A DNA stretch of 64,000 nucleotides. It comes from a virus (lineage: Duplodnaviria; Caudoviricetes). Shown in pieces: positions 38,723 to 60,943 of this stretch (position 1 is its first letter; every line of letters begins with the position of its first letter). The notes beneath the pieces were generated by a model. It saw nothing but the letters and a program-made list of their open reading frames with translations, had not been told where the DNA came from and searched no databases. The stretch covers positions 32,001 to 96,000 of the IMG/VR virus record IMGVR_UViG_3300035498_000530; one strand, given 5' to 3'. Position numbers and translations under genes: made by a program.

Positions 38723-38821
38723 TTTCGTTGTCCTCCTTATTGATCTTATAGTGTATTATATAACTTCTGTTATACAGATCTATAATATATAGTCAAAGCA
38801 TATTTAAATTATAAAAAATAA

Positions 38822-38849: not shown

Positions 38850-38888
38850 ATTATTACAATAATATCAAGACTCATGCTTTGAATCTAT

Positions 38889-40322: not shown

Positions 40323-40468
40323 AGTAGTTTCCTTTCTTGTATCTTAGTAGATACCTATGTATTATTATTTAGCTCAACATAATTGCTATATTATTACTAT
40401 TATAATATGTAACCATATGTACTAAGAATAGCAAAAAATAAACCCTAGTAGAATGAACTACTAGGGTT
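40323..40468 (-). repeat. Early-gene cassette repeat, copy 1 (terminator + early motif + structured leader + AGAAAGGA RBS)
   Basis: Minus strand ACATATTATA...AATATAGCAATTATGTTGAGCTAAATAATAATACATAGGTATCTACTAAGATACAAGAAAGGA. Confidence 0.9.
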
Positions 40469-40502
40469 ATTATTAATCAACAACATTAGTGCTTATGATC
40501 AT

Positions 40503-41642
40503 TTATTTTCTTCCATCATATGATGGAAAATTCTTATCTGGTGCTACAGTATTTAAATTATCCATCCAAGAAGTATTTCTATTATTAAATAAAGCCGCAC
40601 CAGCATCATATGGATTATTAGAATTAGACTCTAATGATGAAACTCTATATTCATCTTTACTTAATGAGAATATAGAATCTTTTATAGATTCGATAAGCTT
40701 TTGAGAAATATATAATAAAAATTCTTTTTCATTCTTAGACATTCTTGATCTTTTAATAGAATCTTCTATATTTTCAATTTCAGAAGAAGCATTTACATAA
40801 TTACGTTTCTTAAATATAGTAAATCGCAAATTATCTTTAATTGAGTCATATGGCATATTAAGTTCTTTACAAGAAGATATAGACTCAAGTAATTTTATTA
40901 TAAATTCATATGATTTTTGTTTTGGCTGGTATGATTCATCAAAGTATTTTGAATATTCATCATCAAATAACTTAAAATACTCATAAGTTTGTTTATCATT
41001 ATTACGACTCTCTAAATTAATCATTAGATCATATATTCTTGAATAATGGGCTGGATTTTGTCTATATAAAAATAAGGTGAATGGTATTTCATCTGTTTTA
41101 TCATCCAGATTATAATTAGCAACATAAGTTGCAAGATAGTATCTAAATATATCTGGTATACTATCATATATAAACTTTGCCAATAGTATATAATTAGGAG
41201 TTTTGCAATCTCCTAAAAATTGTTTAATATCAAACTTTCCCTTAAAAGCATAGCACCATGAACAATTATATATTCTTTCACCATTTGCGCCAGTATAATT
41301 AGTATTATATAAAATACTGTATAATATATCTACTTTATTTACATTAACACCCTGATTATATAAAGATTCAGCATTTAAAAGTTCATAATGCGGTATTTGA
41401 AGATATTTAGTATAAAAATCATCTGATGATCTTATATATTTACTGATTGGATCAATAATCCTATAAAAATCATCATTTATGGTTTTATAATTTGAATTAT
41501 CAAACAAATCTATAGTTGTACCTTCATATAAAGCAATAGTTAAACTACTCATAAATTCATGATATGATCTTTGATTAGAAATGATATCATATAACTTATA
41601 ATTATAATTTTGAGTATTGTTGCAATTTTCTTTCTTGTCCAT
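40503..41642 (-). CDS. Hypothetical early protein, helical family
   Basis: Leader cassette upstream; paralog of 38889-40322. Confidence 0.65.
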   Translation of the reverse strand: MDKKENCNNTQNYNYKLYDIISNQRSYHEFMSSLTIALYEGTTIDLFDNSNYKTINDDFYRIIDPISKYIRSSDDFYTKYLQIPHYELLNAESLYNQGVNVNKVDILYSILYNTNYTGANGERIYNCSWCYAFKGKFDIKQFLGDCKTPNYILLAKFIYDSIPDIFRYYLATYVANYNLDDKTDEIPFTLFLYRQNPAHYSRIYDLMINLESRNNDKQTYEYFKLFDDEYSKYFDESYQPKQKSYEFIIKLLESISSCKELNMPYDSIKDNLRFTIFKKRNYVNASSEIENIEDSIKRSRMSKNEKEFLLYISQKLIESIKDSIFSLSKDEYRVSSLESNSNNPYDAGAALFNNRNTSWMDNLNTVAPDKNFPSYDGRK

Positions 41643-41789
41643 AATTCTTATCCTTTCTTGTATCTTTTAAGATACTTATGTACATATTTATTATTAGCTT
41701 AGTACAATCGCTATATTTTATACTAATATAATATGTGGTTAAATGGCATTTAACAAAAAATAAAACCCTAGTAGTATGAACTACTAGGG
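41643..41789 (-). repeat. Early-gene cassette repeat, copy 2 (diverged loop)
   Basis: AATATAGCGATTGTACTAAGCTA...GTACATAAGTATCTTAAAAGATACAAGAAAGGA. Confidence 0.85.
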
Positions 41790-42325
41790 CTATTACTAAT
41801 CATAATATTAATATTTAAGTATTTACTACCAAATTCTTTTTCTAAATCTTCTAATATTTCATCTAACCATTCCATACGATTGTAAATAGGTGTAACAGGA
41901 TAAGTATTATTATTTTGCTCAATCTCAATAATAGGACTTATAGTAGGAATTAATGTTTTAATAGGTTTCAATTGATTATATTCTTCTGATCTATGAATTT
42001 CAGCTATAACATAGTAATCATAGAATCTATTTTCTCCTATATCATTAGCAGATTCTATAGTAGAATAGTCATCGCCTATATCTATAATCTTAAATCCGTA
42101 TCCATCAATATTGTTCAAGGAACATAGTTTATTAGTAATTCCAATACCAAAATCACTATATCTCCACTTTACATATTCATACTCTATATAATAGTATGGA
42201 GTTTCTTTTCCATTACCACTATAATACTTTATTGTATCTGCATAAGATAACTCTCTATAAAGATTCTTTATCTCTTCAAATGCTTTATTTTCGCATAATA
42301 TTATTACCTGAGATCTGAATCCCAT
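41768..42325 (-). CDS. Hypothetical protein
   Basis: MGFRSQV start with AGAAAGGA RBS; VKW and IGDD motifs common in small phage proteins. Confidence 0.6.
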   Translation of the reverse strand: MGFRSQVIILCENKAFEEIKNLYRELSYADTIKYYSGNGKETPYYYIEYEYVKWRYSDFGIGITNKLCSLNNIDGYGFKIIDIGDDYSTIESANDIGENRFYDYYVIAEIHRSEEYNQLKPIKTLIPTISPIIEIEQNNNTYPVTPIYNRMEWLDEILEDLEKEFGSKYLNINIMISNSPSSSYY

Positions 42326-42837
42326 AATTGATCATCCTTTCTATCTTCATCTTCTTCATAAATTATAGACATTGCTGATTCAATATCAAGACTAAAAATA
42401 TCAGTTTTATCTTGATATATAATTGGATATACAACTACAGACCTAATAACACAATCGTATTCGGGATGAGCATCACTAAATATATCTTTATTATGATTGT
42501 ATAATGCTATTGCTTCTGTTTTTGCTTCGTGCAGTGATGTGTAAATATCAGTACTATGACAAACAAAAGTACCCTGTCTAAATCCATCTACATGAAATAC
42601 TTCTGTAAATTGCCCAAAATAGTAAGTATTTGATTCTGGTTCCAGAAGCATTATAGTTTTAATAGAAGATTCATCATCATCCCATCTATCGGACTCTTTT
42701 AAATACTCTATTAATTTTTCTTTAGACTCAGAGAAACAATCAACAAGTCCATATACATTATTATACATTTTATGATAATGAATATAGAATAACTTTCTTT
42801 TGATTTCTCTTACATTGTCCTTGGTTTCAGCATCCAT
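42304..42837 (-). CDS. SESKE-domain family protein (1 copy)
   Basis: SESKEKLIEYL....L.EPE..YY...IY.S..EA. Confidence 0.65.
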   Translation of the reverse strand: MDAETKDNVREIKRKLFYIHYHKMYNNVYGLVDCFSESKEKLIEYLKESDRWDDDESSIKTIMLLEPESNTYYFGQFTEVFHVDGFRQGTFVCHSTDIYTSLHEAKTEAIALYNHNKDIFSDAHPEYDCVIRSVVVYPIIYQDKTDIFSLDIESAMSIIYEEDEDRKDDQLWDSDLR

Positions 42838-42839
42838 AT

Positions 42840-43751
42840 TTAATCATCCTTTCTATTATATCCAGTTGTAAAATAATTGTAACGTTGAAAATGATAAATG
42901 CCATCTTCTTTGAATTTAACGCTTCTGTATAAATATATACATTTATACATATACTCGACTCTTTCATATCTAGAATCGCATTTACCATAAAAATTATCCA
43001 TAATCCTTTTGGTATCCTTTATTGCTTCTCTATATGAAACATATATGGTTGGAGACCAAGCGCTAACAATAGGATCATCATCTTCACTAGTATTTGAATA
43101 CCAATGGCTTTCTGTAATAAAATATGATGATGATTCTGGAACTCTTATAGTACTTATATAGCTATCATTATAATAACCATCAATATTATTACGTTTATCT
43201 GTAAGATACTCTATTAATTTTTCTTTAGATTCTGACATTACTCTGCATGCATCTCTAAAATAAATATAAAAAGTTTTAATTTTATTATCATCTACATTAT
43301 CATCGTAATCCAGGAGTTCAATATTACTATCTTCATAATAGTCTCCAATTTCTTCAGAATGAACTTTAGATATTATAATAACAGTTTTATATGCTTCCTT
43401 TCCTTCCTTAAAATGATTATTATACAATTCATTAGATTTGACTTTTGCATAATCATAATCTGTATATACATTATCATAATAGTTCAAAGCATCACAATTA
43501 TCAGAACATATTGTATTCCAATAAACTGCCTCTGTATATCCTGACTGATAATAAGTTTCAGCTTCAGGAAGATATATTGTTTCTACAATAGGATTATCCA
43601 CACACTGCAGAAGATTTGATACTTGATCTTCTGATTTGCATATAAATCTCACTCGCCTACCAGAAACAACATTAATTCCCTTTTCATATATTGCATAAAG
43701 CATCTCTACGCAATTATTCTTTATTGGATTGGTTTTTCTTTCTTCTTCCAT
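42840..43751 (-). CDS. SESKE-domain family protein (2 copies)
   Basis: Tandem domains; leader cassette upstream. Confidence 0.65.
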   Translation of the reverse strand: MEEERKTNPIKNNCVEMLYAIYEKGINVVSGRRVRFICKSEDQVSNLLQCVDNPIVETIYLPEAETYYQSGYTEAVYWNTICSDNCDALNYYDNVYTDYDYAKVKSNELYNNHFKEGKEAYKTVIIISKVHSEEIGDYYEDSNIELLDYDDNVDDNKIKTFYIYFRDACRVMSESKEKLIEYLTDKRNNIDGYYNDSYISTIRVPESSSYFITESHWYSNTSEDDDPIVSAWSPTIYVSYREAIKDTKRIMDNFYGKCDSRYERVEYMYKCIYLYRSVKFKEDGIYHFQRYNYFTTGYNRKDD

Positions 43752-43894
43752 AATTTGTCCTTTCTTGTACTTATTGTACTTATGTATTATTTAATGACTC
43801 AACATAATTGTCATATTATACAAATCTATAATATATAGTCATATGGTATTTAAATTATAAAAAATAAAACCCTAGTAGAATGAACTACTAGGGT
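43752..43894 (-). repeat. Early-gene cassette repeat, copy 3
   Basis: AATATGACAATTATGTTGAGTCATTAAATAATACATAAGTACAATAAGTACAAGAAAGGA. Confidence 0.9.
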
Positions 43895-43902
43895 ACTTTT
43901 AT

Positions 43903-44334
43903 TTAGTCTTCGATAGTGCTTATAGTTTCAAGAACATAAGCATCTTCTCCTCTGCCTTTGATAAGCATATATAATGTTTTCTCTGATGATTGCAATTCAT
44001 ATGTCTGATTTTGTCTGCAAAACATACCTTTATTATTTCTATAAAGATCTTCAAGATTCTCTTTAGATTTAGTAGATAATATGCAGATATTTCCATAATA
44101 TGGAATAAATTTTTCGTCTCCTTCATCATTAGAGACCCATTCAGCATATTCAGCTTGATAATATGCATCTTGTTCTGGAAGTCTCAAAGTTATTAATCTT
44201 TTATTAATATCTTCTTGATTCTTCCATCTTTTGCTTATATATTGATATACTAGTTCTTTTGACTCAGACATGTATCTTACAAGGCCTCCGTCATTATAAG
44301 CATAAAATATCTTTGAATTTCTATCAAATAACAT
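43903..44334 (-). CDS. SESKE-domain family protein (1 copy)
   Basis: MSESKELV...LRLPEQDAYYQAEYAEW. Confidence 0.65.
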   Translation of the reverse strand: MLFDRNSKIFYAYNDGGLVRYMSESKELVYQYISKRWKNQEDINKRLITLRLPEQDAYYQAEYAEWVSNDEGDEKFIPYYGNICILSTKSKENLEDLYRNNKGMFCRQNQTYELQSSEKTLYMLIKGRGEDAYVLETISTIED

Positions 44335-44336
44335 AA

Positions 44337-45218
44337 TTAGTTATCCTCTTTTCTTATTACTTTACTAAGACTCTTATAGTTGTTAAGACAATAAAAGCCG
44401 TCTCCATCTTCTTCATATGAATATATAGTCACGTTACCAAAAAGATATTTGTATTTATTAGAAGTAATTTTATTATCTTCATAAATATCAAATGCTCTTC
44501 TTTCTGCTTCAGCGGCTGATAAACAAACGTTAGTATTATAAGATTTAGACATAACAGGATTTTTACCAAAACTAAACCATTCTTCATAGCATCCTATATA
44601 ATAAATATCACTACTTGGAAGTTTCAATTCAATTATTGCATCTTTATTGATGTTATTCCAACTTGATATTTCACTAATAAGATCTTCTTTAGACTCTGAC
44701 ATTATTCTTATTACACCCTGTTCAACATAAGCATAAATCGTTTTAAAATCTTTATTATCAGTATCCTTTTTATCATCTATATATTCAGTATTAGTAACTG
44801 CATAGTATTCCCCAATATAGCGAGTATTTACTTTGGATATTGTGTTTATTACATTATATGACTCTACTCCTTCTTTAGAATGATCATTATATAATCTTTC
44901 ACCATCCATTACAGCATCATTATAGTTTGCATATACATCACCATAATATTCAATAGTATCACGAACATAATCTCTATTTACTTTACGATAAATTACTTCA
45001 TGATATCCCGCCTGATAATATACATCTGATTTTTGAAAGTGGAGTTTCATAGCACATAAATTTTTATTTCTCAACAGTTTAAATGCCTGATCCTCTGAAT
45101 CACTTAAATATTTGATTTTAAAGTGACCTTCTGATAATGAATAACGTACTACATAATCATCTTTAGTTTCATTTGCATTTTCGTTTTCATTAACTTTCAT
45201 TTCTTCATTTTCTTCCAT
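44337..45218 (-). CDS. SESKE-domain family protein (2 copies)
   Basis: Paralog of 42840-43751; leader cassette upstream. Confidence 0.65.
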   Translation of the reverse strand: MEENEEMKVNENENANETKDDYVVRYSLSEGHFKIKYLSDSEDQAFKLLRNKNLCAMKLHFQKSDVYYQAGYHEVIYRKVNRDYVRDTIEYYGDVYANYNDAVMDGERLYNDHSKEGVESYNVINTISKVNTRYIGEYYAVTNTEYIDDKKDTDNKDFKTIYAYVEQGVIRIMSESKEDLISEISSWNNINKDAIIELKLPSSDIYYIGCYEEWFSFGKNPVMSKSYNTNVCLSAAEAERRAFDIYEDNKITSNKYKYLFGNVTIYSYEEDGDGFYCLNNYKSLSKVIRKEDN

Positions 45219-45360
45219 AATCTTGTCCTTTCTTGTACTTATTGTACTTATGTATTATTATTTAGCTCAACATAATTGCCATATTATTATACAGATCTAT
45301 AATATATAGTCAAAGTATATTTAAATTATAAAAAATAAAAGACTGCCATAAGACAGTCTT
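45219..45360 (-). repeat. Early-gene cassette repeat, copy 4
   Basis: AATATGGCAATTATGTTGAGCTAAATAATAATACATAAGTACAATAAGTACAAGAAAGGA; different terminator (AAGACTG/CAGTCTT). Confidence 0.9.
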
Positions 45361-45374
45361 TATTTATTAATCAA

Positions 45375-46553
45375 TCAGTAATGTACATTATACATATTCT
45401 CATAATCCCGAACAATACTATCCATGAAAATTAATTTTTTCTTTTCTTTGTTTAAATATGTATTATTATTAAAATACAACTTATCATACATCTCATCAGA
45501 AATTGTATCTTTGATTGATTCTTCATATTCTTTCATTACCCTATAGCACTCCTTATAAAGTTCTATTAATCCCTTTCTAATACCAGAATTATAATCTTTA
45601 TCAAAAAGACTAATGTTTGATATAATATAAATCATTTCATCAATAAACTTTGTCATATCTTCAAAATTAACCCTATTTATTATTACAGGCATTGAATTTT
45701 CTGATGATGGCTGCTTTACTACATATCTATGATGCTTATAAATCAATATAGCCTCAACCAATGCGTATATATATGTCAGCATAGCATTTAAAGACTCTTC
45801 ATCATGTAAACCACGACTTTCATTAAAATAACTCTGTATTTTGTTAGCATCTATTGTAGGTTTTGGTTTATTGTTTAATGAAAAAGGATCATAGTAATCT
45901 GGTGCTGGATGCATTATAGTATTGTATATATCAGTATGCTCAGATTCTGATATTTCAATATATGAATGAAAACTAATAACCCATTTAAAATTAAGCGGAT
46001 TTCTCTTAGTAAATTTCTCAAATATATTATCAAAATGTATATGTATATATCTTTGAATAATACTAGGAGCCATGTATGCAAAGATTGACATAAAAGCGGC
46101 AGAAGAATTAGTTATTTCATCTTTCTTATAATTTTCATAATTTCTTATATTGGTATATCTAATATTATTTGGATTGATCAAATTACGAGCTATATTAGTA
46201 TAGAATATATTGGATCGATTATCATTTATCAATCTATCCTGTAAATAATTAAAAAATCCATCAGGATCACGATAATTAGATTTATTGTATTCATAGTGGT
46301 ATCTAATAAATTCATCATCTGAAACAGAATACAGCATTTTAAACTCTTTAGAATCCACATTATCTTTAATAGTATTTATAAATTCTATAAAATAATTATA
46401 AACTATTGGATCATCAGACATATATGGTTCTACGTACTTCCAAATACTGTCTACATCATTTTTACGATATATCATATTTGCAATATCTCGTGTAAATTTG
46501 TAATACAGTGTTGAACTTGTCATGATACTAAAAATAGTTTTCTTTTCTTCCAT
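45375..46553 (-). CDS. Hypothetical early protein, helical family
   Basis: Leader cassette upstream; Y.KFT.D.A..Y and P.II..Y shared with 38889-40322. Confidence 0.65.
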   Translation of the reverse strand: MEEKKTIFSIMTSSTLYYKFTRDIANMIYRKNDVDSIWKYVEPYMSDDPIVYNYFIEFINTIKDNVDSKEFKMLYSVSDDEFIRYHYEYNKSNYRDPDGFFNYLQDRLINDNRSNIFYTNIARNLINPNNIRYTNIRNYENYKKDEITNSSAAFMSIFAYMAPSIIQRYIHIHFDNIFEKFTKRNPLNFKWVISFHSYIEISESEHTDIYNTIMHPAPDYYDPFSLNNKPKPTIDANKIQSYFNESRGLHDEESLNAMLTYIYALVEAILIYKHHRYVVKQPSSENSMPVIINRVNFEDMTKFIDEMIYIISNISLFDKDYNSGIRKGLIELYKECYRVMKEYEESIKDTISDEMYDKLYFNNNTYLNKEKKKLIFMDSIVRDYENMYNVHY

Positions 46554-46700
46554 AATCTTATCCTTTCTTATATCTTCTTAAGATACCTATGTATTATTTA
46601 ATGACTCAACATAATTGTCATATTATTATACTACTATAATATATAATCATGTATACTAAAAATAACAAAAAATAAAACCCTAGTATTAATTACTAGGGTT
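46554..46700 (-). repeat. Early-gene cassette repeat, copy 5
   Basis: AATATGACAATTATGTTGAGTCATTAAATAATACATAGGTATCTTAAGAAGATATAAGAAAGGA. Confidence 0.9.
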
Positions 46701-46710
46701 ATTATCTTGT

Positions 46711-47253
46711 TTAAACTGATTCTTTTTCAGTTAATAATCTTAATCTGATTTCTCTCATCTTATCTGCACTCAACTCAGGTTTAGAATAACTGCTTATATT
46801 TATATTATCAAATAATCCAATAGCAAGTTGTAAATCTTGTTCATAAGTATATTCATCTTTTTCAATATCAGATTGGTACTTCTCTTGGTTGTGCACATGA
46901 TGTTCCTTAAGAAGTATTAATGTAATCCCTCTTAAAACATTTTCAACTATATTACCATAAATAATATGATAATCGCTAGGTAAATTTTCTTTAACTTTAC
47001 TTACAAGAATATTATGTAATTTAGTTATGCCTTCATCTGTAAACATATCATCAATGTTTCTATCTTTTGACAAATAATGAAAAATATATAATTCCTTTAA
47101 TCTATTTTCATAAATCTCAATAGTATTATTGATACATTGTTCTACTTCAGCCTTGATATATTCATCAAAATTAATTTGTTCAGTTAATCCACGTCTAATA
47201 CGTTCAATTGATTCTTCGCTTAATTTTCCATTACACATGTTTTCTTTATTCAT
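46711..47253 (-). CDS. Hypothetical early protein (start corrected to 47253)
   Basis: AGAAAGGA RBS of cassette copy 6 lies before the ATG at 47253. Confidence 0.6.
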   Translation of the reverse strand: MNKENMCNGKLSEESIERIRRGLTEQINFDEYIKAEVEQCINNTIEIYENRLKELYIFHYLSKDRNIDDMFTDEGITKLHNILVSKVKENLPSDYHIIYGNIVENVLRGITLILLKEHHVHNQEKYQSDIEKDEYTYEQDLQLAIGLFDNINISSYSKPELSADKMREIRLRLLTEKESV

Positions 47254-47403
47254 AACTTTTTCCTTTCTTGTACTCATTTGTACCTATGTATTATTATTTA
47301 GCTCAACATAATTGCTATATTATTATACTACTATAATATGTAATCATTGTAATTATATTTAACAAAAGATATCCCTAAGGAATTTACTATGTTCCTTAGG
47401 GAT
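47254..47403 (-). repeat. Early-gene cassette repeat, copy 6
   Basis: AATATAGCAATTATGTTGAGCTAAATAATAATACATAGGTACAAATGAGTACAAGAAAGGA; terminator of second family ATCCCTAAGGAA/TTCCTTAGGGAT (related copies near 19746 and 57847). Confidence 0.9.
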
Positions 47404-47409
47404 AAATGT

Positions 47410-47742
47410 TTAGTCGTCTTTAAATGCTACATTTAGAATTCTTAGTCTTACTGTCTCATAATACTTAATAAGCATATTTTTTCCATATCTTACTTCCATG
47501 GTTTCAATATCTTCTATAAATTTTCTTTTTACGTTATATATGATTCTGTTAGCAACAGATTCATCTAATCCAAAATCTCTAGCTAATATCATTAGTTCTC
47601 TATCCTGAGATTTAAAATCATGTGTAGTCATAGAGTTTAACTTCTCTTGAGAATATGACATATTAGCTCTTTTATTTTTATCATAATATTGATCTGGTCC
47701 GTATGTATAATCATATTGAATTGAACCATAATGGGTCGACAT
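47410..47742 (-). CDS. Hypothetical protein
   Basis: GGAGGT RBS; last gene of the tmk-thyX operon. Confidence 0.55.
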   Translation of the reverse strand: MSTHYGSIQYDYTYGPDQYYDKNKRANMSYSQEKLNSMTTHDFKSQDRELMILARDFGLDESVANRIIYNVKRKFIEDIETMEVRYGKNMLIKYYETVRLRILNVAFKDD

Positions 47743-49342: not shown

Positions 49343-50089
49343 TTATTTATCCTCCCTTGATTCGTCTATTATACGTTTTATAATATCCATTACATATGAA
49401 TTGAAATAATCAGTAACTTCTCTATTTTCATCAAAACATGAAAGACTATCTACAAGCAATAGCATACTACGACCTGGAATCTTAGCATAGTCTTTTGAGT
49501 ATTCATGTATCATATAAAACTTTTCACTATAGTGATAGTCATATACTTTAGAAAGATAGTCAGTATTACTCTCTATCTTATCTAATTTATCTGTTCTAGC
49601 TTTCATTAATTCTAAAGCTTTATCATAACTTTGTCTAAGAAGAACTACAAGATTTGGTAATGGTATACCAAATTCATTGTGTTCCATATTAGTTATGATA
49701 TTATAATCTTCTATATCATTAGCTTGATATATTATATTTGATAAAGTCCATCTATCTGTAACTATGATAGCATTCGGATCTTCAAATATTTCTTTATTTT
49801 TCATAACAGTATCGAATCTATTCATACAATAAAAGTATGCTGGGATCTTGCCTGTAAATTCAGATGGATCTCCATATACTCCATTTACATAATTCCTTAC
49901 AAATATAGATTCTTCTGCTCCATATGTTATACTATTAAAGAGATATACCTTTGCCTCAGGATATATCTTTTTCAATAAACCTACAACAATAACTGCTATT
50001 GTTGATTTAAAACTGTAATCTGGACCTTCAAAGTCTATTATAGTAGCTTTACAATCTACCATAGGACTTGTAGATCTAGTATTTTCCAT
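49343..50089 (-). CDS. tmk: Thymidylate (dTMP) kinase-like
   Basis: P-loop FEGPDYSFKST; DRW..SN..YQ; P.P.LVVLL; adjacent to thyX. Confidence 0.85.
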   Translation of the reverse strand: MENTRSTSPMVDCKATIIDFEGPDYSFKSTIAVIVVGLLKKIYPEAKVYLFNSITYGAEESIFVRNYVNGVYGDPSEFTGKIPAYFYCMNRFDTVMKNKEIFEDPNAIIVTDRWTLSNIIYQANDIEDYNIITNMEHNEFGIPLPNLVVLLRQSYDKALELMKARTDKLDKIESNTDYLSKVYDYHYSEKFYMIHEYSKDYAKIPGRSMLLLVDSLSCFDENREVTDYFNSYVMDIIKRIIDESREDK

Positions 50090-50145
50090 ATAAATCGACC
50101 TCCATATTTTATATTTATTTTAAAGTTCTTCCAGTATTATATTAT

Positions 50146-50283
50146 TAAACAAAGGAGCGCCCAGTAGACCGATCCTACTGGGCATAATTTGTAACAATAC
50201 ATACAAGAAAGGTTTAATGGAAATCTTATATTCCAACTTATGAAACTTAAGGGACATTTATGGACAATATTTTATTGACCCTC
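50146..50283 (-). ncRNA. Candidate late antisense sRNA C (~138 nt)
   Basis: AACA-TATAAG-TG at 50294-50283; stem GCCCAGTAG/CTACTGGGC 50159-50183; complementary to early-gene RBS/start regions. Confidence 0.6.
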
Positions 50284-50312
50284 ACTTATATGTTATTAGT
50301 TTATAATATTTT

Positions 50313-50591
50313 ACAAAGTGTATCCCGTATGGGGTCATAACTTCCATACGGGATAGGAGAAATTGTATGCATGAACCATGCCATACCTGATACGCATTAA
50401 CCAATGGAATGGAAAATGTGTTTTTGTTGTAAGGTTTAATTTTATCGCAATCTCAGGAACAGAGTAGAATATGATATAGTATTGTGTATTTTTATATTGA
50501 TTTGAGGATTGTTATAAAACATGTATAAAAAGTAACAATAAAATTTTGTAAAATCTTTATACTATATCAATCTTCTGTTATATTAAACCTC
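50313..50591 (-). ncRNA. Candidate late sRNA B (~280 nt)
   Basis: AACA-TATATT-TG at 50602-50591; terminator TATCCCGTATGG/CCATACGGGATA 50321-50355; internal inverted repeats (AGGTTTAAT/ATTAAACCT; TGATATAGTAT/ATACTATATCA). Confidence 0.55.
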
Positions 50592-50620
50592 AAATATATG
50601 TTATTAGTGTATAATTTTTT

Positions 50621-50838
50621 ACAAAAGAAATCCCGTATGGCTCACAGGTACCATACGGGATATATCTAAGGAAAATAAGCAGCAAAATGGCAAGTCAAGT
50701 CGCTTTCCAAAGGGTGCACCTTTATATATTTACAAGGAATTTTTATTGAATAGAAATGTATTAGATTTGTAAAATTAAGTAAATGCTACAATACTACATC
50801 CTTACCGGAAGCAAGTCGGCTATTTTATACTTATCTTC
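50621..50838 (-). ncRNA. Candidate late sRNA A (~218 nt)
   Basis: AACA-TTTATT-TG at 50849-50838; terminator ATCCCGTATGG/CCATACGGGAT 50630-50661 with a TTCTTTTGT tail on minus. Confidence 0.55.
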
Positions 50839-50863
50839 AAATAAATGTTATTCTTGTAATAAA

Positions 50864-53800
50864 TTATTGTAACTTCTTTTCATGAAGCATTGGTTCGTAT
50901 TTAATACCCATTATATCTTTTACAGACCTTGCCAATTCTACAAGAACTTTATTTATACCACCAGATACTTCAATAGAACATACCATTCTACTACTTACTG
51001 AAAGTGTAGATAAGAATAAGTCTATTGGTTCTTCTGGTCTGAATGAACTATATGGTTCTTTTCCTTCTGGGAATATATCTTTACAAACAGCTTTAAGAGC
51101 TGACTGAGTAACAAGCTTATCACCTACAGAGAAGTCATCTTGGTACTTAATGTAAAATTCAATCTTAACACCATCTGAAGTATCCTTTAATTTACCAGTT
51201 GGAGCAAGTTTTTCATCTGAACCAAAGTTTGGAGTTACAGCATAATCATTAACAGATCCTTTAGCTGCTTTCTTTAATTTCTTAACTCCAGATTCATAAG
51301 AATTACATATCTTCTTCAATGAAGGAGATAATTCTTCTGTATCTACAGTTCTATATACTTTAATATCTTGTACAATACCGGTATTCTTAGACTTTATAGG
51401 AATTCTACCGATATCTGATACTATTTCTTCATCATCAGAAAGTTGTTTAAGAAGAGCATTCATATCATCTTCATCAAATGTATTCTGGAATAATATGAGT
51501 GTTTCGCCTTCCTGAATATTCTGTCCTTTCTTTACCATAGATAATACATTTGTCGTCTTAGGTAAAGTTACTTCTTTCTTTACTACTACATCTGAAGACA
51601 ATGCTTTAGATAACCATGGTGATACAATACCAGAGTCTTCATAACCTTCATCTGTAGTTATAATAGCTACTTTAGCAAGAGTACCTATCTTATATCCTAT
51701 ACTATTAGGATTTCCTATTTCATTGGAATATGATGATTTATCATATGCTAATATCTGATTTGGTTTTACTTTAGATCCTTTCTTTAAGTCAGAATCTAAC
51801 TTAAGAGTTACATAGAAACCACCATCAGAGTTCTTTTCAACTCTTTCTCTAAGATCTATAAACTCTGTTGTATTATTATTATATTTCACTTTAAGATATT
51901 CTGGAGTTGCTTCTATTACTTCTCCAGCACCTTTAGCCTTATGAGCAAATATATCTGTAGTCAAATATGGTAATGCTTCGTCTGCACCATTGGTAATCAA
52001 TGCAGGAGAAGATTTTCTAACTCTCATACCATGTTTTGCTGTCTGTACAAATGTCATAGCAGATCTAAATGGATCATCATGCGTAGTACCAAATGGAGTA
52101 AGTGCTTCTGTCATACACATAGATTTAACACTACCCATATCTTCTTTAGATCCAGATTTTAAATATCCTCTACTATTACCAACACCCATATCTATAGTAG
52201 CCTGTCTAGTAATACCTACATTGCCAGCAAAACCAGTAGACATAGCTAATACATTTGTCATTGAATCGTCAAACGTACGTTTATCAAGACCATAGCTTCT
52301 TTCTGAGTTCATACCAGATAATCCCTTAAAGGTTACTGCATTAGAAGTCTCTATTTCAAGAAGTGGTGTAAGAATAGATGCATCTGCCATCGTAGGATCA
52401 AGCATTACAAGATCTATTACAGCAGACTGTTTCATAGTCATAGGAGCTTTTTTAGTTCTCTTTAATTGATTTCTATAAGCACCATATGATTGTGCTAAAG
52501 CTTTATATACATAACCAGCAACAATTTCATTCTTTCTAAATCTATTACCAGATATATCTACATGCTTATTATATTTATTATCAGTAAGTAATCCATTAGC
52601 ATAAGCCAATGCTGTTACATAATCTGACGGTAAATCAAAGTCTTTACATACAGATACCGTTATAGGATCCATCATCAAATCATAGAAGTTATCAAGACCA
52701 TCTGCTTTAATTCTTCCACCAAAGTTATCTAACTGTTCTACCCATGTAGATTTCTTATTAAGATCTGCTATACTCATTTCATTAGTATCACATATTCTAA
52801 GACCATTCATAAGAAGATCTGCACTTGCTGTTGATTCATAATATAATAAACCATCTTTAAATTTGATTTTATCATACATACTAGTTTCAAAGTCAGGATT
52901 CTTCTTTTCAAAAAGTCTATAATTTATATTAGCTTTATTAAGAGCTGATACCAATCCTTCAGCATGAGCCATAACTACTATAGTTGGTATCTTTGAATCA
53001 AGAATACTACAAACTGAATAAGCACAGTTGCTTGGTGCTGAAGTATCATCATAATCTCTTTGGAATTCTTCGCTAGATTGACATAATAAGTTAACTAAAT
53101 ATGTTGAGAATCTATCTCCAGATTCTTGACCAAAATATAATAACTTACTATTCTCTTTAGTGTAAACAACTGGAATACCATATTTTAAATCATACTTATA
53201 ATTCTTTCTGATCTCATCTTGGTTAAGATATATAATAAAATCTTTAGTTTCAATTTTACTAAATGCTCTTCCTATATCTACATAATCCATTGGAAGATCG
53301 TATTTAATAGATATCTTTTCTGTATTACCTTCGGTAGCATCAATATCTTTATATCTATTCTTTGTAAGAAGCTTAATTACTTTATTAGCAGCTACATTAG
53401 ATTTACCAACAGAATTATTTTGTATCTGCAAGAAAATCTTATTATAGTTTGATACAATTTGGCATACATCTGGGTCTGTTTTTATTATTGGTAATAATAA
53501 TAATTGACCCTGGATTGATTTTAGGTTGCCTCTGAGCCTCATAAACTGATTGTCTACGAACAGTGGAACGTCAAATTTGAGCTTGAAGCGCTGTCCAAGT
53601 GCATCTTCACAGTCAAGTGTCCAAGTCTCTATTAAATCCTCAGATGTGGATGTATTTTGTACATCCATAGATCTAACCACTACAGGTATAGTTTTATCTT
53701 TAAAGCTATTTATAATCTTTACAATATCTTCATTTATATCATAAGTCTCATTAAATTTAGCATAACTAAGATGTTTCCATTCTTCATTAATACTATCCAC

Positions 53801-55363
53801 AGGAACAGAAGTTTCTTTAATCTCTTTAGGTTTATCTTCTTCAAGATAATCTTTTACTGTTTTATTATGGACTTTAATATTATCAAAAGATTTACCTACT
53901 TCAGATAATCTCTTACTTCGAGCAGCATTTATCTTAATAGTATTTTCTTCATCTTCTGATACTGTATCCATAATTTTAGATATATATTCATTATTAGATA
54001 ATTTATCTACAGCATCTTCTACAGAATTACTAGAATTAGCCACAGCTTTAATATTATCCAATAATTCTTCCTTAAGTTCATCAGATATTTCTTTCTTAGC
54101 TTTAGTTTCATTCTTATTAATATTTGTAGTTTTTTCTGGTCTTGCTTTCTTTACACTTGTTTGCTTTTTATTATCTGGAGACATAGAAAGTACTGATATT
54201 TCTTTTGGCTTAATTGTTCCAGATTTACCAGTAAGTCCTTTATACTTAATTGGTCTTTCATTATTTTCAAGACTATCAGTAATAGTTGCAATAATAACTT
54301 TTGGAGAATCTGTATCTGGGTCTCCTAAATCATCTGTATTTGCATCTTTTGCTATTACTCTTTTTATAAGATTAATGAACTTTATAGATTTAGTTTTATC
54401 AAAGTCTTTAAAATCCATCTTAAAGTAATTATTTTCTCCTACGAAGATTATATTAAATCCTTTAAGGGTTTCTTGGACATGTTCTGGATATCTATAAGCC
54501 ATTCTTATTATAACTGATACTGGATTAATAGTTTTCTTATAATCCCACATATTACCATTCTTAATATTCCAATCCAATATAGGAATAAATATAGTTTTAT
54601 GTGTATATCCATATTGATCATATCTGCCATCATTAAGAAGTCTTATCATAAAATCATAATAAAGCTGTACAGCTTTGTCAGCTTTCCAGAAATTATTCTT
54701 AAAGAATGCTTCAGTATAATATGATAAATCAGCAAATAAGTTAAGTCCTTTATATAATTTAAGATTACTAAAAGTCTTCATTATAAATGGACATTCAGCT
54801 TTAACCTCTTTGTATATATCAAATACATTCTTATTAGTTTTAAGTCTTTCATTATATAATAACTTTCTTAATTGTGTATCATTCTTACCGTCTTCGGTTA
54901 AATATGCATCTCTAAATATAGTAATAGCATTTCTTCCTCTGAGATATTCATCTGTCATTTCACAATCTTTAGATATAAATGTAGGTCTATAATCTATATC
55001 TTCATTTACAGATTCTACATTATTTATTATATCTGAATTATATAATAAATCTTCAACAGATTCTTCTAATTCTACCGATTCAGAATCTGGATATAATATA
55101 TTATATCTATTATCTACTGGAGCAGATTCCTGTAGATAATTCTTACTGTTTATATAATAAGTAACATCTTTATCAAGATAGTAAGCCTGATAAGATTTTG
55201 CTCTATTTATAAACATTGGATTTTTCATAAGATTAATACTAGATTTAAAATTTGGAGTCAATAAGTAAATCATAGCACCATGTTTCTTATCATTCTCGTT
55301 TATTGGTAATAAGCATTTCTTCTTAAGTAATTTATTTGGAATTACTTCATCTAAAAATAGCAT
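50864..55363 (-). CDS. rpoB: Phage multisubunit RNA polymerase beta subunit (large part) with N-terminal extension
   Basis: NVGITRQ, PFGTTHDDPFRSAM..Q..H, GYEDS, GDKL....KAV, SVSSRM; ends shortly after SRM, so the extreme beta C-terminus is absent; late motif AACT-ATAAAA-TA at 55399-55388. Confidence 0.92.
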   Translation of the reverse strand: MLFLDEVIPNKLLKKKCLLPINENDKKHGAMIYLLTPNFKSSINLMKNPMFINRAKSYQAYYLDKDVTYYINSKNYLQESAPVDNRYNILYPDSESVELEESVEDLLYNSDIINNVESVNEDIDYRPTFISKDCEMTDEYLRGRNAITIFRDAYLTEDGKNDTQLRKLLYNERLKTNKNVFDIYKEVKAECPFIMKTFSNLKLYKGLNLFADLSYYTEAFFKNNFWKADKAVQLYYDFMIRLLNDGRYDQYGYTHKTIFIPILDWNIKNGNMWDYKKTINPVSVIIRMAYRYPEHVQETLKGFNIIFVGENNYFKMDFKDFDKTKSIKFINLIKRVIAKDANTDDLGDPDTDSPKVIIATITDSLENNERPIKYKGLTGKSGTIKPKEISVLSMSPDNKKQTSVKKARPEKTTNINKNETKAKKEISDELKEELLDNIKAVANSSNSVEDAVDKLSNNEYISKIMDTVSEDEENTIKINAARSKRLSEVGKSFDNIKVHNKTVKDYLEEDKPKEIKETSVPVDSINEEWKHLSYAKFNETYDINEDIVKIINSFKDKTIPVVVRSMDVQNTSTSEDLIETWTLDCEDALGQRFKLKFDVPLFVDNQFMRLRGNLKSIQGQLLLLPIIKTDPDVCQIVSNYNKIFLQIQNNSVGKSNVAANKVIKLLTKNRYKDIDATEGNTEKISIKYDLPMDYVDIGRAFSKIETKDFIIYLNQDEIRKNYKYDLKYGIPVVYTKENSKLLYFGQESGDRFSTYLVNLLCQSSEEFQRDYDDTSAPSNCAYSVCSILDSKIPTIVVMAHAEGLVSALNKANINYRLFEKKNPDFETSMYDKIKFKDGLLYYESTASADLLMNGLRICDTNEMSIADLNKKSTWVEQLDNFGGRIKADGLDNFYDLMMDPITVSVCKDFDLPSDYVTALAYANGLLTDNKYNKHVDISGNRFRKNEIVAGYVYKALAQSYGAYRNQLKRTKKAPMTMKQSAVIDLVMLDPTMADASILTPLLEIETSNAVTFKGLSGMNSERSYGLDKRTFDDSMTNVLAMSTGFAGNVGITRQATIDMGVGNSRGYLKSGSKEDMGSVKSMCMTEALTPFGTTHDDPFRSAMTFVQTAKHGMRVRKSSPALITNGADEALPYLTTDIFAHKAKGAGEVIEATPEYLKVKYNNNTTEFIDLRERVEKNSDGGFYVTLKLDSDLKKGSKVKPNQILAYDKSSYSNEIGNPNSIGYKIGTLAKVAIITTDEGYEDSGIVSPWLSKALSSDVVVKKEVTLPKTTNVLSMVKKGQNIQEGETLILFQNTFDEDDMNALLKQLSDDEEIVSDIGRIPIKSKNTGIVQDIKVYRTVDTEELSPSLKKICNSYESGVKKLKKAAKGSVNDYAVTPNFGSDEKLAPTGKLKDTSDGVKIEFYIKYQDDFSVGDKLVTQSALKAVCKDIFPEGKEPYSSFRPEEPIDLFLSTLSVSSRMVCSIEVSGGINKVLVELARSVKDIMGIKYEPMLHEKKLQ

Positions 55364-55774: not shown

Positions 55775-55810
55775 AATTAGATGTTAAGTTTGGAATTATC
55801 AGATTTGGTT

Positions 55811-56077
55811 TTCCCTCTCTCCCCCCTTACACCCCCCTCTCTCTCTTTCCATCTTAATTTTTATTATACTATATTATGCCTCATTGGACTTTTACTATAT
55901 TATTTTATCCTTCTCTCTTTTATACGTTTATTTCTTAAGTATTATTATTTTATTACCAATTGGTATATTACTATCTGCTCGCTCGGCGCTCGCTTTAGGG
56001 TTTTCTTTTTCTATACCTATTGGGCTCTCTACTGTTTGATTTTACCCCCCTACCCCCCATGGTAACTTTTTACCATG
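55811..56077. other. Candidate replication origin / G-tract element
   Basis: C6-TTACA-C6 (55821-55837) and C6-TA-C6 (56045-56058) flank a pyrimidine-skewed stretch with three GCTCG repeats; near the switch in gene orientation. Confidence 0.4.
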
Positions 56078-56205
56078 AGGAGTAATGAGTGATTTGCTAT
56101 CCAAAAACTGGTACCAATATAGATACTATAGCCCCTATGGAATCTATCTTTGAAATATACGGTAGGTCTCCAGTCCAACACAATAGCCAGTCCGTCGCTC
56201 TCTAT
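56058..56205 (-). ncRNA. Candidate late transcript E reading into the G-tracts
   Basis: AACT-AAAAAG-TA at 56216-56205; hairpin CATGGTAA/TTACCATG followed by G6-TA-G6 instead of a U-tract. Confidence 0.4.
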
Positions 56206-56967: not shown

Positions 56968-57072
56968 ACTATATTGTTAAGATACATATTAAAATATAAA
57001 TATATATTATAAACCTGTAATGTAATAAATATATATTACAAAAACTATACAATAAGAAAGAGGTGATCTAAA

Positions 57073-57192: not shown

Positions 57193-57237
57193 TATATAGA
57201 TCAAGAGAGGGTAAATAATAGAAAGGAAAGATAACTT

Positions 57238-57516
57238 ATGAAATCAAAAATTAATAAAACAGTACTTACAGCTGAAGAATATGTAATGTTTATTACTGAA
57301 AAATCTCATACTCTTAATACCAAAGAGGATGATGAAATTCAGATAGAAAAAATTTTAAACGATGAAGGATATGATATATGGTCTTATCCTTTAGATGAAG
57401 TTGACGAGGCTATGGAAAATAATGATCATATTGCTCTTGTTAAGCTTAATCATTATAGGAATGGTAAAGTCAGCTATTCTGAACATAGATGGTACGAGGT
57501 ACCAATATTAGACTAA
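57238..57516 (+). CDS. Hypothetical early protein
   Basis: AGAAAGGA RBS. Confidence 0.6.
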   Translation: MKSKINKTVLTAEEYVMFITEKSHTLNTKEDDEIQIEKILNDEGYDIWSYPLDEVDEAMENNDHIALVKLNHYRNGKVSYSEHRWYEVPILD

Positions 57517-57539
57517 TATTTACTTAAAGGAGAAAACAC

Positions 57540-57836
57540 ATGAAAAGAAATATAGATTATAATAGAATAAAAAAGAGTCATGTCATTTTTAATGACATCA
57601 AAGGAAACGAATATGAAGGAGAATTTACTTCAGAAAGAGTAGAAAGAACAACAGTTCCAGAAGGATTATATACCTATGAATGTAGGCATAATGATGATGG
57701 ATATGTTGATGTTCCTGCAACTATTGAAGACAAAGTCTTTGTAAACTTCTGTGGAACTTTCTTTACAGATAAGAAAGTGTATTTCCCAGATAAGATGGAC
57801 CATTGTATTGTAATAGACAAAATAAACTACAAGTAA
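57540..57836 (+). CDS. LPD28 (large polyvalent protein-associated domain 28) protein
   Basis: FT..RV.R.TVPEGLY.YE.RH.DD...PATIE..V.VNF.GT signature. Confidence 0.75.
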   Translation: MKRNIDYNRIKKSHVIFNDIKGNEYEGEFTSERVERTTVPEGLYTYECRHNDDGYVDVPATIEDKVFVNFCGTFFTDKKVYFPDKMDHCIVIDKINYK

Positions 57837-57904
57837 GAAAACTATCCCCTAAGGAATTTACTATGTTCCTTAGGGAGTTTTATATATCATAGGAGGAATT
57901 AATT

Positions 57905-59107
57905 ATGAAAAAGAGAATTGCAAAATACGATTCCGATCAAATGGAGCAAATCCGTTTGGGATTGGAAGATGGTCTGGATGTAAGTTGGTATGCTGATCCA
58001 AGATATGATAGCGAGCAAATGAATCGTATAAGAACTGGTCTTAAAGAAAATTTGTATGTAAAATGGTATGCAAATCCAGATTTTAACAAAATGCAAATGA
58101 GAGAAATCATGATAGGACTTAGAAATGGTTTAGATGTAAAATGGTATGCTAAACCAGAGTTTAACCAATATCAGATGGAACAGATAAGATATGGACTTGA
58201 AGAAGGACTCGATCCAAAATATTATGCTGATCCTGCATATAAGCCATATCAAATAAAACAGATCATTCTCGGATTAAAATCCAAGGTTGATGTTTCTATA
58301 TATTCAGAGATCATTGAGGTTGAAGAAGAGGAAGATAAAGAAGAAAATAATACTTCTAATCCTTATTATGCTGGTATAGCTTTATTTGGAAATTCAGAAA
58401 ATAAATCTAATGATAAGAATGAACTTTTTACTTTTGATTCTGATAATAAGAATATTGTTAATATATATAAAGGAAAGGGGGTTATAGAAGATATATGTCC
58501 CGATTTCGATATTAATATAAATGATATTATTAATAAAAATCCAGAAGATTTAACAGATGATGAAAGATCTGTATTATTGGATATTAACTTATTTAGTAAT
58601 CGTAGTAGATATCTTGATGGAGACGATTCTTTTTATCTTGATATTAAGAGAATTATTCATGAGCGATTTGGAATTGAAGATTCTGATGATTATATCCATC
58701 AGATGATTAAAATATCTAGTTTATCTGAAGAGTCAGAAGAAGATGAAGAATATGAATCTAGTGAAAAAGATTATGAAGAATCTAATGAAGATAATTCTTC
58801 ATCTGAAGACGAAGATGCTGATGATACTTCAACTACAAAAGAGTCTCCTATAAAGAAAGTATTATCTTTCTTATCAAGAGGTGCATATAACGAAGATCAA
58901 TTACATCAGATTAATTTAGGAAAAGAGCATGGAGTTGATACTTATGTATATTCTGATCCAAGACTTAATGCTAAGCAAATGAAACAGATAAGAAAAGGAT
59001 TAGAAGATGGACTTGATGTATCACTATACGCAAAAACTTGGGTTGATCATAAGTACATGAAGAAAATGAGAAAGAAACTTAAGAAAGTGCAGAAATTTTT
59101 TGAATAA
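57905..59107 (+). CDS. Tandem 25-aa repeat protein (QM.QIR.GLE.GLDV..YA.P)
   Basis: About five N-terminal and two C-terminal repeats separated by an acidic insert. Confidence 0.7.
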   Translation: MKKRIAKYDSDQMEQIRLGLEDGLDVSWYADPRYDSEQMNRIRTGLKENLYVKWYANPDFNKMQMREIMIGLRNGLDVKWYAKPEFNQYQMEQIRYGLEEGLDPKYYADPAYKPYQIKQIILGLKSKVDVSIYSEIIEVEEEEDKEENNTSNPYYAGIALFGNSENKSNDKNELFTFDSDNKNIVNIYKGKGVIEDICPDFDININDIINKNPEDLTDDERSVLLDINLFSNRSRYLDGDDSFYLDIKRIIHERFGIEDSDDYIHQMIKISSLSEESEEDEEYESSEKDYEESNEDNSSSEDEDADDTSTTKESPIKKVLSFLSRGAYNEDQLHQINLGKEHGVDTYVYSDPRLNAKQMKQIRKGLEDGLDVSLYAKTWVDHKYMKKMRKKLKKVQKFFE

Positions 59108-59138
59108 TATGATTTTTATATAAGAAAGGAAGATTATT

Positions 59139-59966
59139 ATGGACAATACATTGAAAACATTTTATGCAGAAATAGGTACAGACGATTATATATATTCTGT
59201 ATCTCAATCAAAAGAGAAAGTATTAGCAGAAGCATTAAAAGAAAAGGGTCATTTTAAAGGAAGAGTTGCAAGGATTATAAGTATGCAACTTCCAGAAAGA
59301 GATATATATTATCAACCTATGTTAAATGTAACTCTCAATGATGGTGAACTTTTATATCAAATTTGTGAAAATGAAATTATAGATTCATGGGAAGATGCAG
59401 TAAAAAGATCTCATGAATTATATATTAAATATAATTCTAAAATTGATAAAGATTATACATTAGAAGAAGCAGTTTCTTATATGGAAGAATTAGAACCTGG
59501 TAGTGGGCTTTATATGGTTAATTTTGATGATCCTGAAAAGGTAATTAGAATAATAAGTTCATCTGAAAGAGGATGTGATATGAAATTAGGTAAGTTTTTA
59601 ACTGTAAAATTAAATGGAAAAACAATAGAGCCAATTACTTTATCTAATTTAAAGAAACGCATTGAGTCTATTAATAAAGAATCTAGAGATGATATTTCTA
59701 TAGGAATATCATATACTGTAGACCTTTTGCCAGAGGCAAAGTATAATGCCGATCAATTAAGAAAAATATTCTATGGTATTGAAAACGGTGTCGATATATC
59801 TAAATATTATGATCCAGAATTTGATGCTGATCAAATGGCTCAAATATATTTAGGCTTACAACATGGTATAGACTTATCGGTTTTAGGGCATGACTGTGAT
59901 TATACTAAAATGGAAAATATCAGGCTTCAGTTAGAAAAATTGTTAGAAAAGAAATCAGAAGAATAA
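59139..59966 (+). CDS. Fusion of SESKE domain and QM.QI..GL repeats
   Basis: SQSKEKVL...LPERDIYYQ at the N-terminus; YDPEFDADQMAQIYLGL at the C-terminus. Confidence 0.65.
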   Translation: MDNTLKTFYAEIGTDDYIYSVSQSKEKVLAEALKEKGHFKGRVARIISMQLPERDIYYQPMLNVTLNDGELLYQICENEIIDSWEDAVKRSHELYIKYNSKIDKDYTLEEAVSYMEELEPGSGLYMVNFDDPEKVIRIISSSERGCDMKLGKFLTVKLNGKTIEPITLSNLKKRIESINKESRDDISIGISYTVDLLPEAKYNADQLRKIFYGIENGVDISKYYDPEFDADQMAQIYLGLQHGIDLSVLGHDCDYTKMENIRLQLEKLLEKKSEE

Positions 59967-60056
59967 ATAATTATTAAGGGCTACCAATTTGGTAGCCTTA
60001 TATTTTTTGCTACTAAGGACATTATATTAAAAATACTAAAGGAGTATAATAAAATT

Positions 60057-60440
60057 ATGAATAAGAAAAAGAAGAGAGAATTTATAAATGGTCTTGATAA
60101 GTTAGATAATGAATTGAATGATAAGATTAGCTCTATAGACAATAATGTCAGAATTATGACTCCAGAAGGAATCAATAATCAGCTTAATAAATTATCTATA
60201 GTAGAATTAGAGTATTATGCTAATAAGCTTATAGCACATGCCGATGATGATACTATAGGAAAAATATTTAATTATCTTCAAGATACATTTAATATAGGAA
60301 ACAAAGAATTTGATGTCATATGCCCTAAGAAGGATAAGAGAGAGTTAATGGATTTTACTTTAGCTTGGTTTAAGAGTAGAAACGGAGAATCCATAAAACT
60401 TCTTATACTTAAATTTAAGGCATTAGAAGCAGTAGCATAA
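60057..60440 (+). CDS. Hypothetical protein
   Basis: AAGGAG RBS; upstream hairpin near 59976-60000. Confidence 0.55.
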   Translation: MNKKKKREFINGLDKLDNELNDKISSIDNNVRIMTPEGINNQLNKLSIVELEYYANKLIAHADDDTIGKIFNYLQDTFNIGNKEFDVICPKKDKRELMDFTLAWFKSRNGESIKLLILKFKALEAVA

Positions 60441-60455
60441 GAAAGGATAATTAAT

Positions 60456-60830
60456 ATGAAAGAGAAACAAAAATTTTATGTTTTAATAGATGATGATCAT
60501 GTTATTATAAATATATCAAAAAATAAGGATCTTATTTCTAGCTTGGTAAAAGAAGAGGAAGGTAAACGTTTACAAGAATGGAATATTGAAGAAGAAGATT
60601 ACTATTACCAGCCTGTATATTCTGAAACTTATACTGATAATAATTTGGAAGAAGAATATATCTACGGAGGTAAGATCTGTTCAACAAAGAAAGAAGCAAT
60701 AGAAGATTATCATCGATTATATACTAGCTATTATGAGAATGAAGATAATTCATGTGGATTCATTAATTTTATTTCTAAAGAAACTGATGGTGATGAATTA
60801 TATAAAGTCTTATATAGTGAATTTGTATAA
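60456..60830 (+). CDS. SESKE-domain family protein (divergent)
   Basis: ISKNKDLI...YYQP.YSE...ICSTKKEA; AGAAAGGA RBS. Confidence 0.6.
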   Translation: MKEKQKFYVLIDDDHVIINISKNKDLISSLVKEEEGKRLQEWNIEEEDYYYQPVYSETYTDNNLEEEYIYGGKICSTKKEAIEDYHRLYTSYYENEDNSCGFINFISKETDGDELYKVLYSEFV

Positions 60831-60943
60831 ACAGAGTACCCTAGTAGTATGAACTACTAGGGTTTATTTTTTGTATAATAGTAATTTTATCAATATATTA
60901 TAACTATGTATTAAATATATTTATCTTAAGGAGGATAATAAAA

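Follow-up and report, generated by a model that had tools for sequence, protein, structure and literature searches.

The window (i.e., the whole 64,000-nt stretch of DNA that was analyzed) spans bases 32001-96000 of one contig, which is 222,731 bp long and has 30% G+C. A minus-strand gene at 50864-55363 encodes the 1499-aa beta subunit of a phage multisubunit RNA polymerase (RNAP beta), the C-terminal third of which shows ~37% identity to that of Staphylococcus phage S6 and ~36% to that of PBS1. By this resemblance, and thus on the evidence of protein sequence, the AT-rich phage is assigned to the jumbo phages of the AR9/PBS1/S6 kind, all cultured members of which are only distantly related to it. 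A thymidylate kinase-like gene (tmk) and thyX lie downstream of RNAP beta, and the gap of 774 nt between RNAP beta and tmk contains a predicted small RNA gene, sRNA C, together with two neighboring cassettes (A and B). Close relatives of the window were found neither in a DNA search of the phage collection nor among viral contigs queried with RNAP beta and with tmk; the contig L016 represents the same phage, and its RNAP beta–tmk gap is identical.

More than 1800 related RNAP beta proteins were present in metagenomes, on contigs of up to 270 kb; their lengths range from about 860 to 2400 aa, some bear acetyltransferase, peptidase M23 or phosphoesterase domains, and one is labelled as belonging to a Paraclostridium MAG, which is a hint at the host group. 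The wider surroundings of RNAP beta have several features of their own. A single ORF of ~7033 codons starts at 61898 and runs on to ~82999 (G000 93898-114999), and giant genes adjoin the RNAP region in relatives too (>3100 residues in L012 and >3650 in L013, the latter protein with peptidase and glucosaminidase domains). In strong contrast to the genome at large (30% G+C), 55780-56080 (plus strand) contains long C- and CT-rich runs; it falls within the large non-coding region that extends from the RNAP beta gene to the plus-strand early cluster. The tRNA scan of the 64-kb window yielded none; outside the window, a sequence at G000 ~172,560-172,740, upstream of gene 139792-140562 (window numbering), resembles the 3' half of a tRNA.

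The features in and next to the gap are the following:

49343-50089: tmk, thymidylate kinase-like gene
50113-50127, minus strand: tmk's own predicted promoter, an AACT variant of the late motif
50138-50145, plus strand: early-promoter-like octamer, the basis of a plus-strand reading of the region
50147-50283, minus strand: predicted sRNA C transcript of ~137 nt, with promoter, 5' hairpin and terminator
50158-50184, minus strand: terminator hairpin of sRNA C (terminator scan), followed by a U-rich tail (50147-50157)
50196-50212, minus strand: anti-leader/anti-SD segment; its complement matches the AAGAAAGG SD and the two flanks of leader hairpin 2
50213-50227, minus strand: conserved block (AAGA)UUUCCAUUA, the complement of the start-like string UAAUGGAAA
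50235-50245, minus strand: complement of the start of gene 57238-57516 (11 nt, a single match), in a predicted hairpin loop
50246-50283, minus strand: 5' domain, beginning at +1, with the conserved UUGKCC motif and the start-motif complement 50258-50269
50284-50294, minus strand: predicted sRNA C promoter (AACA-N6-T), the adjoining G at 50283 being the predicted +1
50313-50849, minus strand: cassettes A and B (+1 at ~50838 and ~50591, respectively), with the same promoter subtype and a terminator stem in common (repeat family D11)

The sRNA C promoter fits the AR9-type late class, i.e., that of the non-virion RNA polymerase. The late consensus of AR9 is AACA-(6N)-TA/G, the last base of which is the transcription start (PMC5312081). 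Throughout the genome analyzed here, AACA-N6-TA is 4-fold enriched in intergenic DNA and is found 33-44 nt before many gene starts, usually directly after a terminator. A promoter subtype with TGA(R)G at the start is common to all three gap cassettes, and four of its five intergenic copies genome-wide fall in the 774-nt gap. Since tmk has its own promoter, sRNA C is best regarded as a separate unit and not as a tmk leader. The late-motif variant AACT takes the place of AACA in the tmk promoter of each of the four related phages (50113-50127 on the minus strand here, ~1590 in L002, ~5965 in L006, and ~15093 in L012). The predicted transcript folds with an energy of -33.4 kcal/mol (z = -2.6), and its only same-strand ORF (45 codons) lacks an SD and runs through the terminator. 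By sequence criteria sRNA C is an independent, non-coding unit with its own predicted promoter and intrinsic terminator. Rfam covariance models applied to the whole window gave no match at the gathering score; the best weak hits reached 14-16 bits, the thresholds being 50-100.

In cassettes A, B and C, as well as in those of the relatives described below, the terminator is directly preceded by a CU-rich, anti-SD-like stretch, often with CAU 4-8 nt ahead of that stretch; such a layout would suit pairing of the RNAs with translation-start regions. A clear target family within the phage was found for sRNA C only, none being evident for A and B. As a detail of the two neighbors, sRNA B reads CAU, seven bases, and CUCCU directly 5' of its terminator (region 50355-50375, minus strand), and sRNA A has UUCCUUA at the corresponding relative place (region 50665-50700, minus strand).

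The promoter-RNA-terminator cassette recurs in the RNAP beta–tmk gap, on the same strand, in three related metagenomic lineages: L002, which is the closest relative (85% identity in the RNAP beta C-terminus) and has two cassettes in its gap, L012 (80%), and L006/L014 (78%). The homologues have in common the promoter, a 5' hairpin from +1 with the UUGKCC motif, the terminator, and an internal block. Across the relatives, a one-pair deletion in the terminator stem is compensated and pairs are swapped, and RNAalifold on three homologues recovered the terminator alone. In this phage and L006, the internal block, which includes UUUCCAUUA, agrees at 13 of 13 positions (shuffle p = 0.004); L014 and L012 have UUUCCAUUA as well, and no other internal block is conserved. 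No cassette was detected in Listeria phage LPJP1 and Staphylococcus phage S6, where RNAP beta is followed by only ~100 nt, nor in L004/L005 and L013, in which synteny differs.

The gap might instead yield no stable RNA at all and consist of duplicated terminator/promoter junctions insulating RNAP beta from tmk, in which case the matches to gene starts described below would be by-products of AT-rich, start-like sequence. The modules are indeed duplicated, 10-mers are common in DNA of 30% G+C, and random windows exceed the sRNA C stretch in their total number of 10-mer matches. Yet three other lineages retain bodies of 100-140 nt, flanked by promoter and terminator and containing conserved internal blocks, tmk has its own conserved promoter, and a 17-mer match like the one in sRNA C lies far beyond chance; we therefore consider such RNA-less junctions improbable.

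The plus strand also had to be considered. The first-pass annotation had set against its own proposal the scenario that the region is a decayed plus-strand copy of an early cassette, not transcribed on the minus strand, which is unlikely because the minus-strand unit is conserved. In a broader form, the plus strand would be the functional or ancestral one and would carry, reading rightwards, a decayed or still active early promoter-leader-start cassette composed of the octamer at 50138, a hairpin, the leader-like 17-mer, an SD, and either a mini-ORF (50217-50243) or a 26-codon hydrophobic ORF (50260-50340); such a cassette could serve as a decoy, encode a tiny peptide, or supply the toxin of a type-I-like pair in which sRNA C would be the cis-antisense RNA. 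The order of these elements mimics that of real early cassettes, the opposite strand of all homologues reads SD-like sequence, 4-8 nt, and ATG at a similar distance from the terminator, and the conserved block contains ATG GAA A. However, the octamer, the core motif of which occurs 238 times in the genome, differs from the seven leader promoters at the flanking bases and is absent at the corresponding place in the relatives, in which no opposite-strand promoter is conserved; moreover, the spacing from SD to ATG is only 4 nt in this phage, the terminator scan found none that follows on the plus strand, and the plus-strand fold is not better than that of the minus strand. A functional or ancestral plus strand thus appears quite unlikely.

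Coding on the opposite strand was rejected: the ORFs have 8, 10, 11, 24 and 32 codons among the homologues, with indels that are not multiples of three and no visible coding constraint. A cis-antisense or type I toxin-antitoxin pair is not supported either, as the opposite-strand ORF varies in length and frame and no promoter is conserved on that strand.

Because the promoter/terminator architecture is kept in relatives and neither a promoter nor an ORF is conserved on the opposite strand, we take a minus-strand RNA of ~137 nt from 50147-50283 as likely, with good confidence for a prediction from sequence. The cassettes probably represent a newly recognized, conserved small RNA family upstream of tmk in a small clade of uncultured AR9-like jumbo phages.

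The genes to which sRNA C is complementary belong to early clusters on both sides of the RNAP region, and the matched start regions are as follows:

40323-40363, minus strand: leader and start of gene 38889-40322, a perfect 12-mer target
41643-41690, 43752-43788, 45219-45256, 46554-46595 and 47254-47292, strand as for 40323-40363: close paralogous leaders
32811-32860: looser leader copy
57233-57243, plus strand: start of gene 57238-57516, 11-nt match
59137-59148, plus strand: start of gene 59139-59966 in the plus-strand early cluster, 12-nt match

Each leader copy stands behind a YATATTATA early-type promoter, and the layout common to the six close copies and the looser one consists of this promoter, a small stem-loop, an 8-nt block, the variable hairpin 2, and the SD AAGAAAGG, located 8-9 nt before the ATG. 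On both sides of the RNAP region, the early clusters employ the matched SD variant (AAGAAAGG without GGAGG), and gene 59139-59966 lies within the plus-strand cluster that is driven by a promoter at ~57001-57020. The minus-strand leader gene cluster (36315-47742) is an insertion of ~11 kb relative to L014, which has at this place only two small leader genes with a different leader. For the 293-aa leader gene, no homologues were found beyond the phage itself, and a scan of viral contigs for the leader pattern returned chance matches in coding DNA only.

As to the plus-strand promoter itself, the sequence at 57001-57020 agrees exactly with the early promoter consensus published for AR9, down to the G located six bases downstream (PMC5312081); it is followed by a TTG-start ORF of ~40 codons at ~57073 and then by the early cluster 57238-61474.

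The first-pass annotation had described sRNA C as a late-expressed concatemer of antisense sites against the start regions of the phage's own early genes, and all sequence strings that it quoted were found at the positions it gave. Read on the plus strand, 50196-50212 equals the 8-nt block of the leader joined directly to the bases that follow hairpin 2, i.e., both flanks of the hairpin are matched. The 12-mer within it is perfect at 40331-40342 and 41652-41663, and 11 nt plus one G-U pair are available at 43759, 45227 and 47262; the copy at 46562 also requires one G-U only, which brings all six close copies to 12 consecutive pairs with at most one G-U. Further along, 50235-50245 is identical to 57233-57243 on the ATG of gene 57238, and 50258-50269 is identical to 59137-59148, which covers the ATG of gene 59139; the initial 10 nt of this match recur on the starts of the genes that end at 41642 and 32810.

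An exact 17-mer of such make-up is expected ~1e-4 times per genome, as estimated from base composition. The 10-nt core of the leader has 10 copies in the genome (nine in sense orientation at gene starts and one in sRNA C). Compared with 3000 random 149-nt windows, the stretch ranks in the top 3-4% for matches to start windows as well as to start codons and SD windows, whereas its reverse complement is ordinary. In the count of matches at annotated starts versus internal ATG windows that the first-pass annotation had proposed as a check, complements of at least 10 nt were found at 13 of 186 starts but at only two of 547 internal ATG windows (p=8e-7), and 8 of 180 starts were still matched after the leader paralogues had been collapsed to one (p=3.5e-4). 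No start enrichment at 10 nt or more was seen for sRNA A, sRNA B or the reverse complement of C.

The matches themselves hold, but they stem from few independent events, namely one leader family, one start motif on three related starts (59139, 41642 and 32810), and one 11-mer (57238). The term concatemer, with its four antisense sites, is therefore weak, and a single start-region-like stretch with two short motifs added describes sRNA C more aptly. The stretch aligns colinearly to a start region of the 43751/45218 leader type with two substitutions and small indels, and the spacing from anti-SD to anti-AUG is 4 nt in sRNA C versus 8-9 nt in the targets.

The segment that faces the leaders is predicted to be accessible. 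It lies between the last internal hairpin and the terminator with a mean probability of being unpaired of 0.63 (0.69 for the adjoining conserved block at 50213-50227), and sRNA C would thus present, at the functional site, a mostly unpaired seed with 12-17 nt of complementarity to the SD and leader of six to seven genes. Whole-length duplexfold was dropped as a statistic because of huge loops, and 22-nt sliding windows, cofolding, and exact complement counts were used instead. The pairing of both hairpin flanks across the SD that had been suggested in the first-pass annotation is also predicted by cofolding: in the minimum-energy dimers with the genes ending at 40322, 46553 and 47253, hairpin 2 is kept and both of its flanks are paired, and in the two copies of highest affinity (43751 and 45218) the hairpin is opened and the duplex is longer. 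Net binding across the leader copies ranges from -12.5 to -20 kcal/mol. Shuffled RNA bodies gave -8.7±2.3 (40322) and -11.6±3.0 (45218) with the two leaders tested, which places the actual binding energies ~1.7 to 2.9 sd ahead of the shuffles, a modest advantage.

Conservation bears differently on the anti-leader segment than on the cassette. The segment is not conserved: L006, L014 and L012 have other sequence at this place, and the resemblance in L002 is not significant (p=0.31). The L006/L014 RNA shows no complementarity to the two early leaders of its own phage, nor does the L012 RNA to the early leaders of L012, and the L006/L014 and L012 RNAs show no enrichment at their own gene starts (20 and 8 starts available, respectively). 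Covariation between seed and target was absent in the relatives compared (L006/L014 and L012; L002 is represented by 3.9 kb). The leader cluster and the anti-leader segment are both lineage-specific and thus co-occur. A 13-nt start match of L006 was dismissed as a conserved target, as the orthologous gene starts differently in the phage analyzed here.

With this pattern, a real sRNA C might match the leaders only incidentally, having gained an inverted start-region fragment by recombination among shuffled promoter and terminator modules; its true role could then be, e.g., pairing with host mRNAs through UUUCCAUUA and the CU-rich stretch, or protein binding. Several observations agree with a fortuitous match: UUUCCAUUA, and not the anti-leader segment, is the only conserved internal block, the RNAs of the relatives match neither their own leaders nor gene starts, sRNAs A and B have the same layout but no phage target, the junction modules are visibly duplicated (repeat family D11), and the colinear alignment to one leader type could produce the same k-mer pattern without any function. 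On the other hand, the sole inverted copy of the leader core in 223 kb falls in the accessible part of an sRNA body (~1% of intergenic DNA), its core of 11-12 nt is perfect although the flanks have diverged, the hairpin flanks are joined exactly, and the enrichment survives the collapsing of paralogues. An inverted duplication could be either the origin of a regulator or a neutral relic, and descent alone does not therefore decide. We regard an incidental match in an RNA with another role as a serious possibility, which follows close behind antisense shut-off.

The explanation that accounts best for the locus is antisense shut-off of the early genes that bear the leader; it is plausible, if only tentatively adopted. 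Of the late, multi-target antisense RNA proposed in the first-pass annotation, the late-promoter minus-strand RNA is likely in view of the conserved cassette and the AR9 consensus, and the targets do stand behind early-type promoters; its regulatory part is weakened by a seed that is not conserved and by the relatives' RNAs, which lack matches to their own leaders. According to the antisense model, sRNA C would be transcribed by the phage non-virion RNA polymerase from its AR9-type late promoter and would expose the accessible anti-leader stretch, which looks derived from an inverted start region. It would then pair with the SD (AAGAAAGG), the flanks of hairpin 2 and, in some copies, the AUG of the six to seven paralogous early genes; a few further early genes with the same SD variant could be bound as well. 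The most likely effect would be a block of ribosome binding, perhaps with decay of the early mRNAs, once the non-virion polymerase is active. We infer the transcription of sRNA C, its timing, its pairing in vivo, and the repression from sequence.

Several known systems resemble parts of the proposed mechanism. The c4 RNA of phages P1 and P7 acts in trans on an mRNA of its own phage, masking a ribosome-binding site by short complementary blocks; it is processed from the operon of its target, belongs to temperate phages, functions in immunity, and has one target. The proposed action of sRNA C, in trans on mRNAs of its own phage through short blocks that mask ribosome-binding sites, would be alike, but sRNA C has its own predicted promoter and terminator, comes from a jumbo phage of lytic type, and its candidate targets are six to seven, or more, paralogous leaders. 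In T4, two proteins, the repressor RegA and the endoribonuclease RegB, shut off early mRNAs via their translation-start or SD regions. The late shut-off of the early class proposed here would be the same, whereas the agent would be an RNA that reads the SD variant and the leader flanks. Taken to its full extent, sRNA C would be the RNA counterpart of RegA/RegB, i.e., an sRNA made by the late polymerase that reads the early-class SD variant and both flanks of the hairpin (as a three-way junction) and silences a recently expanded family of early genes (for host takeover or anti-defense), with the repeated leader as their address tag; we offer this extended version as speculative and rather doubtful. 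Among the CU-rich anti-SD sRNAs that Gram-positive bacteria encode, RsaE/RoxS, SR1 and RNAIII have their own promoter and an intrinsic terminator, and an accessible pyrimidine-rich stretch in them pairs with the SD/AUG of several mRNAs. The layout of sRNA C is similar, but it is encoded by a phage, has a predicted phage-polymerase promoter, and shows no Rfam relationship to them.

In AR9, antisense transcripts from late promoters are cis-antisense to the genes that they overlap (PMC5312081); these share the promoter class and the broad phage group with sRNA C, which differs in being predicted as a free-standing intergenic RNA with distant targets in trans. PreS of phage lambda is a trans-acting, base-pairing sRNA that is reported to act on the host replication machinery and to support the lytic cycle (bioRxiv 10.1101/2024.10.31.621285). 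The c4 antisense RNA is listed among phage sRNAs along with the sar RNA of P22 and the OOP RNA of lambda, each of the latter two pairing with one phage gene (PMC12197685). All of these are trans-acting or base-pairing as sRNA C would be, but among the phage sRNAs compared none is described as switching a temporal class of genes via a common leader. The antisense model, if it holds, would accordingly be a variation on the known trans-acting sRNAs of phages and not a new category.

To our knowledge, the temporal shut-off of early genes is understood in a few model phages only, in which proteins carry it out, and we know of no post-transcriptional switch of such a kind in jumbo phages with their own RNA polymerases. 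If true, antisense shut-off by sRNA C would add an RNA layer to the timing of phage development and would give a reason for the elaborate 5' leader that the paralogous early genes have kept in common. Even if the antisense reading fails, the cassettes would define a new conserved sRNA family in a large uncultured AR9-like clade.
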